10,097 nt of DNA. Source: Methanobacterium sp. (GTDB taxonomy: Archaea; Methanobacteriota; Methanobacteria; Methanobacteriales; Methanobacteriaceae). The stretch spans positions 561 through 10,657 of the forward strand of contig PMWA01000024.1 in the NCBI GenBank assembly GCA_003166335.1. The letters run 5' to 3'. A program made the position numbers. Numbering within the stretch: position 1 is the first letter of the stretch; every line of letters begins with the position of its first letter. This document shows, in pieces, positions 1 to 6,000 of this stretch.

Positions 1-3000
1 TCAAGGCTCTCCGCTGCTAATCTAGCTTGCATGGCAATATTGGCTGCACTCATACATCCCGGATTAGTGGGTATTATAGTGATTTTAGCCGTTTTTTCTT
101 CTTCGTTGACTTCAATGTCTCCAACTATTCCCATCTCCACTATACTAATACCCATGTGTGGATCAGGAATTTTCGCTAATGTTTCTCGTATTTTTTCAAC
201 TAATTCTTCAGTCATATTAATCACTCGTAAATTAATTTAAAATTCAAAATAATATACAAATTTTACATTTGAATTAAGAATGTATTCTTTTATATTCCTA
301 ATATTATATTTAAATTTAATTTTTTTTAGATCATTCCAATTTAGTTAATTATTTTAACCTATGCCTTATCCTCACTGCAACTCCTTTAATTGCATTTTTC
401 ATCTCCTCACCAGATAAGACAGCTTTACCAACAGCCACCACTTCATCATTCTTTAAAATCACCACCTCATCACGGGGAATAATATCAGAGTCAGCATTAA
501 CAACCCCAGGTGCAAAGATAGTGTTAGTCTTCAAGTCAAAGTCAATTTCAACCAAGTTTTTATTTATACTTTCCTTAACGATGAATCCACCTTTAAGATT
601 AAGAGAATATAAACCAGTTTCATAATGAAATGTTGCTATTTGTTCTCCATCTTGGATTATACGTTTACTAAATCTACCCATCACTCTTGATCCATCAGGT
701 ATTAATGCAGAAGCATCTTCAGTGTTAAACTGATAACATGCAATAGAACGTAACTTTTTCAAATTTCTATTTTTGTCTCTGATTTTCTCATACTTCTTCA
801 ATTCATTTCCCAGATTTTCCATCGATTCATGTGACGTTACTCTGCCATCTTTACAAGTATAAACTGCATCATCTAAATATTCTTCACATACCCTCCTATA
901 ACCACCAGCCACATGGGCAATTACTTGTTTTCCATCCACATATTCAGTTAAACATTTACCTGTGACATCTATTTCCTCCTGGGACCAATCTCCAATAGTG
1001 GAAACATCATAAGATTGTATAGGATAAGTTTGTTCCAGTTCCCTAGGACATATCCCAAAAGGAGAAGTTAAAATTAATTCCTGAAAATTTTTAGTGGCTC
1101 TCATAAATATTCGATGTGATTTAGATTGGGAGTAAGGTTTCCTCATGCTGCAAGGTAAAACTATCACTACTTCACCCTGTGGTTTAATATGTCCCATTCT
1201 ATCCCTCCATCTCCGAACTTCTGGTCTGTAGAGGGATGCTTCAATAGTACATAAAATCTTCATAGAATATCATTTCCTCCCAAAAAAATTAAATTTTAAG
1301 TTTAATTATAAAAAAACTAATTTGAAGTATATTAATTAAATTTTATTTTCAATTATAACAGATTTTTTCCTATTATTCAAACGATTTAGGTATAGTAAAA
1401 CAGAATTTTGAACCTTTACCCAATTCTGATTCAACCCAAATATCTCCATTATGTCTCTCAACTATCTTTTTACACATAGAAAGTCCTATACCCGTACCGG
1501 GATATTCATTCTTTTCATATAACCTCTGGAATACTTCAAATATTAAATCTTTATGTTGTGAGTCTATTCCAATACCATTATCAATTACCTGAAAAATCCA
1601 TTCATTACCATTATCTTCAGCTTTAACATGAATTTCAGGTGCATCTTCTGCCCTGAATTTAATCGCATTCCCCAAAAGATTTTGGAAAAGTTGAGTAAAC
1701 TGGGATGGATCAACCATAATGGTCGGAAGTGCATCATAAGTTATTCGTGCATTATTCTCCTTTATAGATACTGTCAAATTTAAAATACTTTTATCCAATA
1801 CAGACTCAATATTAACCAATTTAAACGCTTCAACTTTACTGGTATTCCTTGAATATGTTAATAGATCTGTGATTAACTTTTGCATACGTTCAGCGCCATC
1901 AACAGCGTAATAAATATATTCATCAGCATCAGACTCCAATTGACCTTTATAACGCTTTTCTAAAAGTTTAACGAAACTAGTAACCATTCTTAAAGGTTCC
2001 TGCAGGTCATGAGATGCCATATAAGCAAACTGCTCTAATTCTTTATTAGAACGCTTTAATTCCTCAATAAGATTCTTTTTATCGCTTAATGCTATTTTTA
2101 AGTTATCCTCCATTTCTCTGCGCTTAGTAATATCCCTAGCTACATGAACACTTCCCATAACCTTCCCTTTCTCATCATAGATAGGTGATACAGTAACAAT
2201 AAAATAACCACCCAAGTTTTCCTCATAAACCTCAGAACTATGCTCTTTACCATCTTTTAATAGTTTTGAATGTGGACAGAAGTCAGGAGGACAGTTACTA
2301 CCATGTACAGCAGCAAAACACGGAACACCAATACATGATTCTGGTGTAACATCCAAAGTATCAGCCATGGCTTGGTTAACACGAGTAACTCTATGCTCTC
2401 CATCCAATATAGCTATAAGATCAGGGATAGCATCGAAAGTACGCTCCCATTCTTCCCTAATCATTATAAAAGGATTTATTGTCACATTTCCATCCTTCAA
2501 ATTGTTATCTAAGATAAAACATCACTATCCTCAAATTCCCTTTATATTTCAAAAAAATGATTTACTTGTTCAAATAATTAACTATTATAAATTCCTATAA
2601 TTCATTAACTTTATTCCTATTGTAAATATTCACCATTCAACCATCTAATTCTACATATGCTGGATAAATCCTTATTTAAAGAGATGATGTCATTTTTATC
2701 AAGTTTATGAACATCATCTTTCCCAACAATACGAGTTAAATTAGCTATCTCTTCTGTTGATAATTCTATAAAATTTGTGAGTCTATTAACCCCTTCTTTA
2801 ATATTTAATTGTTTCATTAGCTGAGGATTTTGAGTGGTGACTCCAGTCGGACATAATCCTGTATAACATATCCGATATTGCTGACAGTTAATAGCTATTA
2901 AAGCTGCTGTACCAATATAAACTGCATCAGCTCCTAATGCTAGGCATTTTGCAAAATCTGCTGATCGAAGCAACCCACCTGATGCTATCAATGATATATT

Positions 3001-6000
3001 ATCTTTAACTCCTAATTCAGTGAGGGTTTTGTGAGCTTGTGGAAGTGCAGCGAATATTGGTATACCTACATTATCACGGACGTAGAGGTCTGTAGCACCG
3101 GTACCACCACCAAAACCATCTAAAGCGATATAATCAATATTTGAATCAACCAGCACTTTAATATCGGCCTTAACATCTCCACATCCTATTTTAGCTCCGA
3201 CTGGTGCACCATGGGTAATCTCTCGTAAATATGAAACTTTATCTTTAATATCTTGTTGACTGGTCATATCATAATGATGAGCCGGAGAGTAAGCAGCCTC
3301 ACCTGACTCCAATCCCCTGATCCGTGCCACTTCAGATGTCATCTTTTCTGAAGGTAAATAACTACCTTTACCAGGATATGCTCCCTGTCCAAACCTAATC
3401 TCAACTGCAGCGGCTGATTTAAGAATATCTTCGTCAATCCCGAATCTTCCCGTAGAATATTGTACTATCCTACAATTTAATCCTTCAATTTTCTCTTCCG
3501 AGGTTAATCCTCCTTCACCCGTATTAAATCCTATATTAAGTTTTGAAGATGTCTTAGCTATGACTAATTTCACGTTCTTGGAAACAGCTCCAAAACTTAA
3601 ACCTGAAATCATAATGGGTGAAGACAACTTTAATGGTTTTTTTGCATTGGGACCTAGATTTACAGTAGTATTTACATGTTCTTCTCGATTTAAAGGAATT
3701 TTATTTACTTGTGCTGGTATGAATTGGATGTCATCTAAGGAGAATGGTAGTTTTTTTAATGAACCCATTGAAACTATCAAACTTTCATTGCTTATACTCT
3801 CCTCTTTGATGTCCACGACGGTCTGGTAGAATGATGGGTCTTCTAAAGATTTTCTTTTACGCATAAAAGTGTTACTTTCACCTGTACCTATCTGATTACA
3901 ATAATATAATGATTTTAGTTCATTTTCAAAAAAAACCGGACAAGTATTACAGAGGCATCCCTGTGCTTCAATATCACAGTGACTCACATCAATTCCGCAA
4001 AAAAGAATTTCACCATCACATTGATGAGGATAACTGGGACACAAAGGACAATGACATTCATCTCTATTCTCTTTAGTATCCGAGATTTTAGTCCTTATAC
4101 TTGCCAGTTCTACAACCATACTTAAATAACCTTAAAATTTTTTTAGTAAAATATTATAGTTCTATTAACAAAAAAGATATTATAATTTATATAAATCTCC
4201 TGGGATCGGTTTCAATATCCACAATAACTGACTTTTCTGATGCAAGAGCTTTATCAACTGCTCCTGGCAACTCTTCAGGAGTTTTAACCGAAATTCCCAT
4301 CCCACCACAATCTCGTGCATAAGCAGCGAAATCGGGGTTATAAAGTTCAGTTTGCCAGACAGGATATTTCTCCACTTTCTGCTCCTGCATAATCATGCCT
4401 AATTGATGATTATTAAATAGGAATATTTTAATAGGAAGTTCATTTCGGACAGCAGTTAAAAAATCAGCCATAACCATCGAGAATCCACCATCTCCCGTGA
4501 TGCATACCACTTGTCTTTCAGGATAAACTAATTGAGCAGTTAAAGCCGCTGGTAATCCATATCCCATACTAGCTAAGTAACCAGACATGAGTAATGTTTG
4601 GCTTTTCTTCATCCAAAAATTACGTCCAAACCACCAGCAATCCTCGCCGATATCCAAGGTCACAATGGCATCTTCTGCAATTTTCTCATTTAAAACTTTA
4701 ATTATATATTGTGGTCTTACAGGGGTTTTAGTATCGTCAGCTTCTTCATCTAAAAGATCTAACCATTCATTCTTAAGTTTTCTTATCTCCTCTAAATAAT
4801 CATCTCGTTTATTCTCCCGTACCAAGTCAATAATCTCTGGTATTATTTCAGCACTGTTTCCATAGAGTCCAACTTCAACAGGGTATTGTCGTCCGATCAT
4901 TAAAGGATCTATATCTATTTGAACTGCTTTTTTTACAGGCAGATGGGTCATATCCGAGAAGGATGATCCAATAACTATTAGTAAGTCACTGTTCAACACC
5001 AATTCCGTAGCAGCCGTTGATCCGATGTCACCGTGACTTCCCACATAAAGTTCATTATCTTCATCAATAACTCCTTTACCACGGAAGGTGGTAACTACTG
5101 GTGCGGTGATTTTTTCTGCAAGTTCTAGTAAGTTTTCACCTTGAGTGATAGCTCCAAATCCGGATACTATCACTGGACGTTCCGCATTATTTATTGCCTG
5201 AGCTGCTTGAAGTATTAGGAACATGGGTTGGGTTATGGCATTATTAGGGAAACTACCTTCGAAAGGTACTGTTTTAGAAGCGTAAGGCAGTTTTTGAACA
5301 TCATTAGGTATCCCTATATGAGAAACTCCTTTATCTAAAATAGCATGTTTTATGGCGTTAGTTATAAGGGTGGTGGTTTGATCTTCTGACATTAAAACTT
5401 TATTGTAAACTGTCATTGATTCAAAAAAACTTTGTTGATCGATTTCTTGGAATGAACCCGGTCCTATGAGTTGTCTTCGTAGCATTCCAGTCATCGCTAG
5501 TACTGGTGAGTGGTCGAGACTTGCATCGTAAAGTCCAGTGGCGAGATTAGTTGCCCCGGGACCGGCAACAGTAAGACAGGCTGCTGGATGTCCTGTTAGT
5601 TTGCCGTAGGCTGAAGCCATAAATGCAGCAGTCTGTTCATGTCTCACTTGTACATATTGTAGGGCATTGTTTTTTCGCACTGCTTCCAAAACACCTAAAG
5701 AAGAAGTCCCGGGCAAACCGAAAACATATTTAATACCCCATTCCACCATTTGCTCAACCAAAACATCAGATACAGTTGATTCTCCTTCTTTAAACTCCCT
5801 AACCTCTTTTTTGATTAAAATAAAAGTTTTTTTAGGAGAGTTACAAACGGGACATCTCCAGTTATCTGGAAGATCATCAAATTTTGTACCTTCCTTTTCT
5901 TCATCAAATATATAGTTACAGACAGTGCATCTATAATTAGCCATTTAAAATCCTCTACTAGCTTTATTCTATTTTATCTGGTTATATTTATGATTTTCAA

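Follow-up and report, generated by a model that had tools for sequence, protein, structure and literature searches.

The closest described systems to the locus analysed here are the pyruvate oxidases, such as E. coli PoxB with its membrane/quinone route, glutamate synthase (GltS) and a small clostridial flavoprotein. In GltS, K937 is a 2-oxoglutarate-binding residue and E978 provides the coupling to the amidotransferase, roles for which our literature search found no supporting report; given artificial acceptors, the alpha subunit is able to oxidise glutamate. The clostridial protein, C. difficile CD0828, joins a rubredoxin to a GltS-like FMN/[3Fe-4S] domain; it is encoded in the rbr-perR-sor operon, both H2O2 and air induce it, and without it H2O2 survival falls by 3–5 log (PMC11980386). 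NADH reduces CD0828 only slowly, which leaves room for another substrate; fed with NADH, CD0828 is also too slow a reductant of Rbr and Sor to be regarded as their donor (PMC11980386).

Here we describe a pair of genes from Methanobacterium sp. (contig PMWA01000024.1) whose products combine cores of these types with small Cys-rich heads. The survey's finding of two co-oriented genes 67 bases apart was confirmed by the open reading frames at 4187–5944 and 2617–4119, and the domains it named (Rubredoxin with TPP_enzyme_N/M/C, and DUF2769 with Glu_synthase) all score above the Pfam cut-offs. It had also called the enzyme pair undescribed; a literature search of main texts without supplements, reaching few subscription journals, likewise returned no description or report of it.

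Layout and domains of the gene pair

Coordinates are positions in the window, the whole 10,097-nucleotide stretch of DNA that was analysed. The features are:

349..1263, minus strand: arcS-like gene (DUF5591+PUA), a context marker outside the module
2617..4119, minus strand: gene 2 (P0002, 500 aa), DUF2769-headed GltS-type FMN/[3Fe-4S] protein, "AYPG" subfamily
2722..3795, minus strand: FMN barrel, residues 109-466 (Pfam Glu_synthase, 389 bits; Foldseek top matches GltS)
2851..2886, minus strand: Cx5Cx4C [3Fe-4S] motif (C412, C418, C423), aligning with the GltS cluster Cys
3358..3396, minus strand: altered active-site loop, residues 242-254 (alignment to 2VDC)
3898..4056, minus strand: DUF2769 head, residues 22-74, two CxCxxC motifs (PF10967, 42.2 bits)
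4120..4186, minus strand: AT-rich intergenic gap of 67 bases
4187..5944, minus strand: gene 1 (P0001, 585 aa), rubredoxin-headed, tail-less pyruvate-oxidase-like ThDP/FAD enzyme (Pfam, fold match, tree)
4214..5776, minus strand: ThDP/FAD core, residues 57-577 (Pfam and alignment to PoxB)
5822..5938, minus strand: short rubredoxin domain, residues 3-41 (C6, C9, C31, C34; PF00301, 41.5 bits, cut-off 23)
6002..6017, minus strand: AT-rich conserved element lying some 60 bases upstream of gene 1, candidate promoter

No terminator-like hairpin was called within the gap, which is bridged by one RNA-library contig, a bridge that does not imply a single transcript. Peat RNA-library contigs cover both genes in all four runs compared; runs X1 and X2 show near-complete bin coverage and may include DNA, and gaps in X3 and X5 are unusable. 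An identical 14-mer recurs in 13 of 19 displayed upstream regions (one of the 19 is incomplete), and we infer that the conserved element may be an archaeal BRE/TATA promoter. Sigma-70 promoters were rejected: a scan gave 18 sites against 15.6 expected, and the promoter type is wrong for an archaeon. Neighbouring genes in the window are the arcS-like gene, a histidine kinase, UbiA and a geranylgeranyl reductase; no stress genes, rubrerythrin included, were found there. Across Methanobacteriales, the arcS-like gene marks a chromosomal slot occupied by one or both genes of the pair.

Protein 1 has the three-domain PYR/FAD/PP fold (Pfam, AlphaFold and fold match), with TPP_enzyme_N/M/C following the rubredoxin, and its AlphaFold model has a pLDDT of 93.6. 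Its best solved relative is E. coli PoxB (E 8e-87; Foldseek 32% identity). The TPP and FAD motifs, left unchecked in the survey, proved intact in 60 close homologues: E103, Q166, G484-D485, N511-N512, K290 and D344 are each present in 60/60, as are the four rubredoxin Cys. The catalytic Glu and the GDG...NN ThDP-Mg motif align with PoxB, and the conserved R288/K290 and D344, which we take to bind FAD, align with its middle domain. The protein ends 7 residues past the position of PoxB 526 (of 572), without the 46-residue membrane tail, so it needs another electron acceptor. In the tree it belongs to a clade that is tail-less throughout, apart from the tailed POX/PoxB/YdaP group. It shares 37% identity with P0259, a protein that scores above the cut-off of the NCBIfam pyruvate-oxidase model PRK08611; that model is also protein 1's own best NCBIfam match, and protein 1 falls below every NCBIfam pyruvate oxidase/dehydrogenase cut-off displayed (487/742 for PRK08611, then 409/788, 379/792 and 369/638). 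Protein 1 is placed outside its namesake pyruvate-oxidase family.

An acetohydroxyacid synthase was also considered for protein 1 and rejected. N214 (K in 5/60), S330-D331-M and E521 differ from the genome's own AHAS-type protein (contig C119), which lies outside the protein 1 clade and has the K, R and W that are presumably second-substrate residues; the PRK06276 score (348/866) is below cut-off. Automatic labels on the proteins of this pair include "pyruvate oxidase", "acetolactate synthase" and "methylamine-glutamate N-methyltransferase C", and are probably wrong in detail.

Protein 2 (structure model pLDDT 90.2) has GltS FMN domains as its best solved relatives and shares 39.7% identity with the archaeal GltB of the same genome, which adjoins amtB/glnK-like genes on contig C55. 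Its head has eight Cys invariant in 106/106 homologues, with C48 kept in 100/106, and is a putative metal-binding domain, possibly for Zn; no look-alike above 0.79 was found in the ESM Atlas. The [3Fe-4S] Cys are likewise kept in 106/106. In the active-site loop, R242, Y248 and K251 (106/106, 106/106 and 104/106) replace K931, K937 and E940 of A. brasilense GltS. The E978 equivalent (position 289) is variable, being Glu in 4/53 AYP-type rows vs 4/4 GltB2 rows, and Cys313 is near-invariant in AYP-type rows (52/53). Amidotransferase or GXGXG genes, present at four GltB2 loci (L059, L060, L063 and L064), were absent beside AYPG loci, and the AYPG clade is separate from GltB2 with support of 100. 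The trees of both cores were quick and FastTree builds from which redundant and distant rows had been thinned, and the GltB-like one giving the subfamily order omits two long-branch rows. Given the Tyr at the Lys937 equivalent, the variable Glu978 equivalent, the missing amidotransferase partner and the separate clade, a true glutamate synthase was rejected; protein 2 is outside its namesake family.

Distribution and pairing

Both genes were present in 31 of 50 sampled Methanobacteriales genomes, one in 8 and neither found in 11. Where both occur, they are adjacent in 15 of the 31 genomes and apart in another 15, and the pairing looks ancestral in the order but loose. In Methanomicrobiales, 23 of 42 genomes with the TPP gene lack a GltB-like match at E<=1e-80. 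The TPP gene is found in 19/23 genomes with such a match vs 23/48 without (Fisher p 0.009, kinship uncorrected); for the AYPG type alone there is no enrichment (7/9 vs 35/62, p 0.29), and the seven genomes with both orthologues never have them adjacent. Around 20 TPP and 20 GltB-like loci of this order, neighbours were varied and mostly non-stress genes.

Three branches of the TPP tree have the two cores side by side: Methanobacteriales, a bacterial Rieske/CDGSH clade (18/56 metagenome loci, many too short to reveal a neighbour) and an archaeal pair, L203, in which neither protein has a head and an acylphosphatase adjoins. A deep split is common to the TPP and GltB-like trees. A functional association of the two genes, whose products both appear redox-active, is supported. 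Free DUF2769 genes also lie beside the TPP gene where no GltB-like gene is present (L237), so the survey's count of DUF2769 next to TPP overstates this pair. Heads are exchanged on both cores. The GltB-like core carries DUF2769, rubredoxin, Rieske, CDGSH or no head, and the TPP core carries rubredoxin, Rieske, CDGSH+Fer4_19 or no head. A headless AYPG-type gene (L086) has a free Rieske gene directly upstream. The interchangeable heads are small domains of redox type, DUF2769 putatively so.

Several candidate interpretations were rejected. The system is not confined to Methanobacteriales, as a Rieske-headed sister pair is present in bacteria. Coenzyme B synthesis was discounted as a role, since neither gene was found in 11/50 Methanobacteriales genomes and the genes occur in non-methanogens. 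Fusion of both cores had two matches among 7998 longer proteins (P0242, P0243), both read as artefacts; in P0242, a Rieske-GltB-like and a Rieske-TPP protein are joined by an out-of-frame-looking stretch, which indicates two adjacent genes. In a Clostridia sample, 0/100 scored genomes matched the archaeal TPP query (E<=1e-100) and 0/5 the bacterial one; both searches lacked a positive control, which makes these counts uninformative.

Candidate functions

The explanation that we favour, at roughly even odds, is that two soluble flavoenzymes work in parallel, perhaps sequentially, to reduce one-electron carriers for O2/H2O2 defence. Each would oxidise its substrate by two electrons and release these one at a time through its built-in metal head. 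In protein 1, ThDP would decarboxylate pyruvate or another 2-oxoacid and FAD would accept two electrons, which the rubredoxin, replacing the membrane/quinone route of PoxB, would pass on singly; the product would probably be a free acid. Free acetate fits the host genome (99.4% complete), which encodes two acetyl-CoA synthetases and gave no match to acetate kinase. Protein 2 may run the GltS synthase half-reaction in reverse, oxidising an amino acid at FMN to a 2-oxoacid and ammonia, with electrons leaving via [3Fe-4S] and then the DUF2769 head. The amino acid need not be glutamate because the active-site Lys is Tyr, and the 2-oxoacid could feed protein 1 or chemically quench H2O2. Likely acceptors are rubrerythrin, a flavodiiron protein or free rubredoxins; the host encodes two intact rubrerythrins, one flavodiiron-type protein and five free rubredoxins, and neither an NROR-type Rubredoxin_C domain nor a superoxide reductase was found in its genome.

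We favour defence because of relocated TPP-gene copies in a dps–cytochrome b5 operon, relatives beside rubrerythrin and the H2O2 protection by CD0828 (PMC11980386). Outside the pair, in families f2 and f3, the TPP gene lies downstream of dps and a cytochrome-b5-like gene at 9 of the 10 retrieved loci, a context that represents one inherited event, not nine. Rubredoxin-GltB loci numbered two in 101 clostridial genomes, both with rubrerythrin directly downstream and one with a Fur-family gene nearby. Against defence, the stress evidence stems from the rubredoxin-headed branch, a different subfamily from AYPG. Further points against it are the lack of stress genes in the window, the mostly non-stress neighbours in Methanomicrobiales, the slow reduction of Rbr and Sor by NADH-fed CD0828 and the failure to find a superoxide reductase in the host genome.

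The survey had proposed a self-contained couple: a 2-oxoacid is oxidised on protein 1, and the electrons pass through rubredoxin and DUF2769 to protein 2, the terminal reductase. Protein 2 might then, for example, reductively aminate a 2-oxoacid or reduce a cyclic imine. Adjacency on three branches, the shared deep split and the uncorrected co-occurrence in Methanomicrobiales all agree with such a couple. We nevertheless consider it unlikely because the pairing is loose, each gene also occurs alone, and the archaeal and bacterial versions are distant sisters. The split and single genes of Methanobacteriales, the Methanomicrobiales genomes without a GltB-like match, the missing adjacency and AYPG enrichment in that order, and the headless L203 pair all count against it, and clostridial and CD0828-type genes adjoin rubrerythrin rather than a TPP gene. 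Rubredoxin potentials are about -100 to +100 mV, and electrons on rubredoxin would have to climb ~100–250 mV to a GltS-type FMN. Oxidative-stress relief, mentioned in the survey as a caveat, has better contextual support.

The pair might instead be a minor route of catabolism or clean-up that ends in carriers and has no link to oxygen stress, its adjacency being inherited co-regulation; this too seems rather improbable. The route could run from amino acid through 2-oxoacid to acid or remove surplus or damaged metabolites, and it fits the peat RNA-library contigs and scattered TPP-gene neighbours of amino-acid metabolism: proline dehydrogenase with an aldehyde dehydrogenase at L194 and L198, glutamate dehydrogenase at L249, arginine decarboxylase at L253 and L256, and malic enzyme at L250. 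However, no neighbour is shared between lineages, a head of high potential would need a high-potential sink, available in methanogens mainly under oxygen, and the dps, rubrerythrin and CD0828 links speak against it. Least probable, and in our view quite improbable, is that protein 1 is an ordinary oxidase that scavenges oxygen, forming acetyl phosphate and H2O2, with Dps and the GltB-like protein limiting peroxide. The PRK08611 match, a POX-type Glu at 521, dps in the same operon (f2/f3) and the acylphosphatase at L203 point this way, but the score lies below cut-off, the clade is apart from tailed enzymes, an invariant rubredoxin head is unnecessary for O2 reduction at FAD, and acetate kinase has no match in the genome.

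As a bolder reading, doubtful but possible, we tentatively suggest an ancient two-enzyme module of archaea and bacteria with exchangeable metal heads that would take amino acid to 2-oxoacid to acid and deliver four electrons to high-potential one-electron carriers. In methanogens it would act as a pyruvate:rubredoxin oxidoreductase, a new acceptor class in the pyruvate-oxidase family, and as an oxygen-tolerant supplier of electrons to rubrerythrin and flavodiiron enzymes once the supply linked to H2 and ferredoxin gives out. On this reading a new type of redox metal domain would be found in DUF2769, and AYPG would be an amino-acid dehydrogenase derived from the glutamate-synthase barrel. Two uncharacterised enzyme subfamilies are defined here. 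If the proposed function is true, a fused one-electron carrier would be a third electron exit for the pyruvate-oxidase family, beside O2 and quinone, and DUF2769 would gain its first function. It would also suggest why CD0828-type proteins guard against peroxide despite NADH being a poor donor, offer a candidate rubredoxin reductant in methanogens without an obvious NADH:rubredoxin oxidoreductase, and bear on methanogen oxygen survival in peat and soils.

Comparison with known systems

Protein 1 shares its three-domain ThDP/FAD fold with E. coli PoxB (3EY9/3EYA; TM-score 0.92 to the PoxB chain) and C. glutamicum PQO (9EV3-9EV6), and with PoxB the catalytic Glu, Phe-Gln, GDG...NN, FAD-domain residues and Glu at 521. 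Unlike both, it is tail-less, carries an N-terminal rubredoxin instead and falls in a separate clade; it also has Asn133 for His and Met517 for Phe465 of PoxB. Fold and cofactor motifs are likewise shared with Lactobacillus/Aerococcus pyruvate oxidase and the Bacillus YdaP type (PRK08611), at 27–37% identity, but protein 1 differs in its tail-less headed clade and in scoring below the NCBIfam cut-offs.

Protein 2 resembles the GltS synthase domain (1OFD, 1EA0/2VDC, 7MFM) and archaeal GltB2 in its FMN barrel, Cx5Cx4C motif, Arg268 (R957) and GGT loop. It differs from them in having Tyr for K937, Lys for E940, no conserved E978, a new Cys313, a DUF2769 head instead of ferredoxin and no amidotransferase/GXGXG neighbour. 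Like C. difficile CD0828, it is a protein of ~480–500 aa with a small N-terminal Cys-metal head on a stand-alone GltS-like FMN/[3Fe-4S] unit, whereas CD0828 is rubredoxin-headed and sits in the rbr-perR-sor operon. Rubredoxin-headed GltB-like proteins of the analysed set, which does not include CD0828, mostly keep Lys and are at best a sister subfamily of AYPG (support 91), and a clade of AYPG with the Rieske type that excludes the rubredoxin type was rejected (p-AU 0.0006). The nearest sister groups of both cores form an uncharacterised bacterial pair, Rieske-GltS-like plus Rieske-PoxB-like, whose genes are likewise adjacent; it differs in its Rieske/CDGSH heads, its usually reversed gene order and a GltB-like partner that keeps Lys. 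With joining-branch support of 85–91 in the TPP tree and 91 in the GltB-like tree, the archaeal and bacterial versions are likely distant sister modules.

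Anatomy and setting of the gene pair

The pair consists of two co-oriented genes 67 bases apart, as the survey's finding had described them, and Pfam confirmed the domain content of both. Their positions, with that of an arcS-like gene, are as follows.

4187-5944, minus strand: gene 1, the TPP gene, encoding P0001 (protein 1); Rubredoxin and TPP N, M and C domains, all above the Pfam cut-off
2617-4119, minus strand: gene 2, the AYPG gene, encoding P0002 (protein 2); DUF2769 and Glu_synthase domains, both above the Pfam cut-off
349-1263: arcS-like gene, with one or both genes of the pair directly upstream across the order (L033-L045, L051-L058)

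The named homologues indicate a Methanobacterium-like archaeon as host. Its genome (2.49 Mb, 32% G+C, 99.4% complete) carries one copy of each gene and encodes its AHAS-type enzymes separately from protein 1. The survey had also placed the remaining glutamate synthase elsewhere, and a separate archaeal GltB indeed adjoins amtB/glnK-like genes. Upstream of gene 1, at a distance of about 60 bases, lies a 14-base AT-rich element that recurs in 13 of the 19 upstream regions shown; it is a putative archaeal promoter. The 67-base gap gave no call for a hairpin terminator. Contigs from peat RNA libraries, possibly of DNA origin, covered both genes in four of four runs (three studies), and one spans the gap between them, which does not by itself establish a single transcript.

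Other genes nearby were also recorded. A PAS histidine kinase gene (1373-2500) separates the pair from arcS, an insertion confined to the closest relatives (L051, L057, L058). At 7021-9319, a UbiA-type prenyltransferase gene is convergent with genes for a geranylgeranyl reductase and a ferredoxin; this group is kept upstream of the pair, and probably serves lipid synthesis and is unrelated to it.

Two enzymes with putative metal-binding heads

Protein 1 resembles pyruvate oxidases up to the flavin. Its AlphaFold model (pLDDT 93.6) and its sequence both matched E. coli PoxB best, followed by POX and PQO enzymes. The cofactor motifs, which the survey had left unchecked, are intact: the rubredoxin cysteines, the catalytic E103, Q166, the GDG...NN motif and the FAD-domain residues K290 and D344 were invariant in 60 close homologues. 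However, PoxB extends 46 residues past the last matched position and protein 1 only seven, so that the C-terminal membrane tail is absent. In addition, the His of the PoxB GPGxxHL motif is replaced by Asn and Phe465 by Met. The host's own AHAS-type protein carries a Lys, an Arg and a Trp, the second-substrate residues of AHAS, whereas protein 1 lacks all three. Among the NCBIfam cut-offs shown, protein 1 passed none. Being PoxB-like up to FAD and without the tail, protein 1 needs another electron exit, for which the rubredoxin head is the obvious candidate.

A FastTree phylogeny of 109 rows recovered an archaeal rubredoxin-headed group (support 97) and a bacterial group (support 100) whose heads are of the Rieske, CDGSH or rubredoxin type. 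Together with headless relatives these form one tail-less clade (support 85-91), outside which fall AHAS and the tailed POX/YdaP-like group (support 98). A small rubredoxin-headed branch (P0249, L205) had no firm place. We also observed a family of about 1,080-1,190 aa with tandem double POX-like ThDP modules (P0251, P0254, P0256, P0281 and others). The TPP gene contains a stop or frameshift in G011, G036, G050 and G069, through either decay or assembly error.

The model of protein 2 (pLDDT 90.2) matched the FMN domain of glutamate synthases, and the Cx5Cx4C cluster motif, R268 and T340 were invariant in 106 close homologues. However, the A. brasilense GltS loop K931...K937-P-G-E940 reads R242...Y248-P-G-K251 in protein 2 (104-106 of the 106 homologues), GltS E978 is not retained in the group, and a near-invariant Cys313 is new there. 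Amidotransferase and GXGXG genes adjoin true GltB2 loci, whereas none lies beside gene 2. The AYPG group is a clade (support 100) whose members also come from Methanomicrobiales, Archaeoglobaceae, Bathyarchaeia (headless), a deltaproteobacterium and NC10. A separate clade (support 98-99), in which the Lys is mostly kept, unites the GltB-like proteins with Rieske, CDGSH or rubredoxin heads. The two clades may be sisters, a grouping with support 91 under LG+G4 and no resolution under a mixture model. A grouping of AYPG with the Rieske-headed type that excludes the rubredoxin-headed type was rejected (p-AU 0.0006).

The DUF2769 head has eight invariant cysteines. Free DUF2769 genes lie directly upstream in 4 of 11 rubredoxin-GltB loci, one TPP gene is flanked by them on both sides, and at L086 a free Rieske gene precedes a headless AYPG gene. 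These arrangements suggest an electron-carrier role for DUF2769, with a putative metal. The host has three further free DUF2769 genes, two of them in tandem, on contigs C117 (8496-9209) and C114 (5847-6098). Many Methanobacteriales encode yet another GltB-like type, the third (L047:5220-7076, L048-L050), which measures about 620 aa, carries a polyferredoxin head, and has a GXGXG neighbour and no amidotransferase gene seen adjoining. GltB-like proteins of Clostridiaceae and Paenibacillus (L089:6848-8194, L090, L093, L094) lack the Lys and all three [3Fe-4S] cysteines; a dihydroorotate-dehydrogenase-like gene lies nearby in L089.

Co-occurrence and adjacency across genomes

Among 50 other Methanobacteriales genomes, both orthologues were present in 31. 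Two had the TPP gene alone, six had the AYPG gene alone (one a partial copy), and 11 lacked both (one of these only 64% complete). The genes were adjacent in 15 of the 31 two-gene genomes (three of these showing a stop, a frameshift or a contig cut), apart in 15, and undecidable at a contig end in one. The slot just upstream of arcS held both genes at five loci, and at three more with the kinase inserted as in the window; it held the TPP gene alone at four and the AYPG gene alone at seven. The shared slot and its occupancy patterns are therefore most simply explained by a pairing ancestral in the order, with the adjacent cases as one event. Archaeosine synthesis yields a cyclic imine, so an FMN imine reductase linked to the arcS neighbour is conceivable; plain synteny is more likely. 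At locus L204, a DUF5591-only gene lies two genes away from a rubredoxin-GltB gene.

Outside the family, none of 12 AYPG loci (two of which end early) had a TPP neighbour, and six of the ten genomes checked carried a TPP orthologue elsewhere. One unclassified Methanobacteriota locus has the AYPG gene with a TPP neighbour. In 71 Methanomicrobiales genomes, 42 had the TPP gene, nine the AYPG gene and seven both, never adjacent. With 15 weaker GltB-like matches counted too (all 11 inspected were rubredoxin-headed), the TPP gene occurred in 19 of 23 genomes with a GltB-like gene versus 23 of 48 without (p 0.009, ignoring kinship). A Rieske-headed bacterial pair was first seen as a frameshift-joined record, and 18 of 56 such bacterial metagenome loci, many of them short, contained both genes. 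At one archaeal locus (L203) both genes are present and the heads absent. The association of TPP and GltB-like genes is old and recurrent, not obligate.

Stress context and possible roles

Some neighbourhoods suggest a link between these genes and oxidative stress. Within the order, the TPP gene of families f2 and f3 has been relocated, in nine of ten loci to a place behind dps and a cytochrome-b5-like gene. In two of these families' loci (L031:4504-7098, L032:5397-8004), the operon runs ZIP transporter, archaeal dps, cytochrome-b5-like gene, rubredoxin-TPP gene. It thereby encodes a heme-b5-like protein in methanogens that are not known to have cytochromes. Rubrerythrin follows both clostridial rubredoxin-GltB loci found. 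One report describes C. difficile CD0828, in which a rubredoxin is joined to a GltS-like part and whose gene belongs to an rbr-perR-sor operon. Both H2O2 and air induce it, and H2O2 survival depends on it (3-5 log). Its reduction by NADH is slow, and it passes electrons poorly to Rbr and Sor; the authors left the function open, mentioning glutamate metabolism (PMC11980386). On the other side, no stress gene lies in the window, and neighbours of these genes in Methanomicrobiales are mixed.

The host encodes two intact rubrerythrins, one flavodiiron-type protein, five free rubredoxins and two acetyl-CoA synthetases; searches of this genome gave no match to acetate kinase, superoxide reductase or the Rubredoxin_C domain. 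On contig C9 (1283-4242), three rubredoxins, assigned by similarity, cluster with ferritin, peroxiredoxin and superoxide dismutase genes, which were identified from translated sequences rather than by a family scan.

We hold with roughly even confidence that the proteins are two parallel two-electron-to-one-electron converters serving O2/H2O2-reducing enzymes; their anatomy is observed, and their substrates, electron direction and sinks are what we infer. Protein 1 would oxidatively decarboxylate a 2-oxoacid and reduce its own rubredoxin, and protein 2 would oxidise an amino acid at FMN and pass electrons out via [3Fe-4S] and then DUF2769. Both would deliver to O2/H2O2-reducing enzymes, and the product of protein 2 may serve as substrate for protein 1. 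The survey had instead proposed a closed couple, in which oxidation on protein 1 drives reduction on protein 2 through rubredoxin and DUF2769. This accounts for the recurring adjacency and is possible, but it leaves the frequent separation of the genes, their single occurrences and the headless pair unexplained, and redox potentials would make the step from rubredoxin to a GltS-type FMN uphill. It is not the best supported reading, and we consider it unlikely. A catabolic route independent of stress seems to us rather improbable. We regard it as more doubtful still that protein 1 is a plain H2O2-forming oxidase.

The survey had called the pair undescribed, and our literature search likewise found no report of it or of a rubredoxin-headed TPP enzyme. 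Two sources mention DUF2769, only in passing: one for a small protein of M. mazei under heat stress (PMC12704099), the other in a fold survey (bioRxiv 10.64898/2026.04.01.715805). The pair is real and uncharacterised, a variant on two kinds of enzyme already known, and is likely the archaeal version of a broader carrier-headed module.
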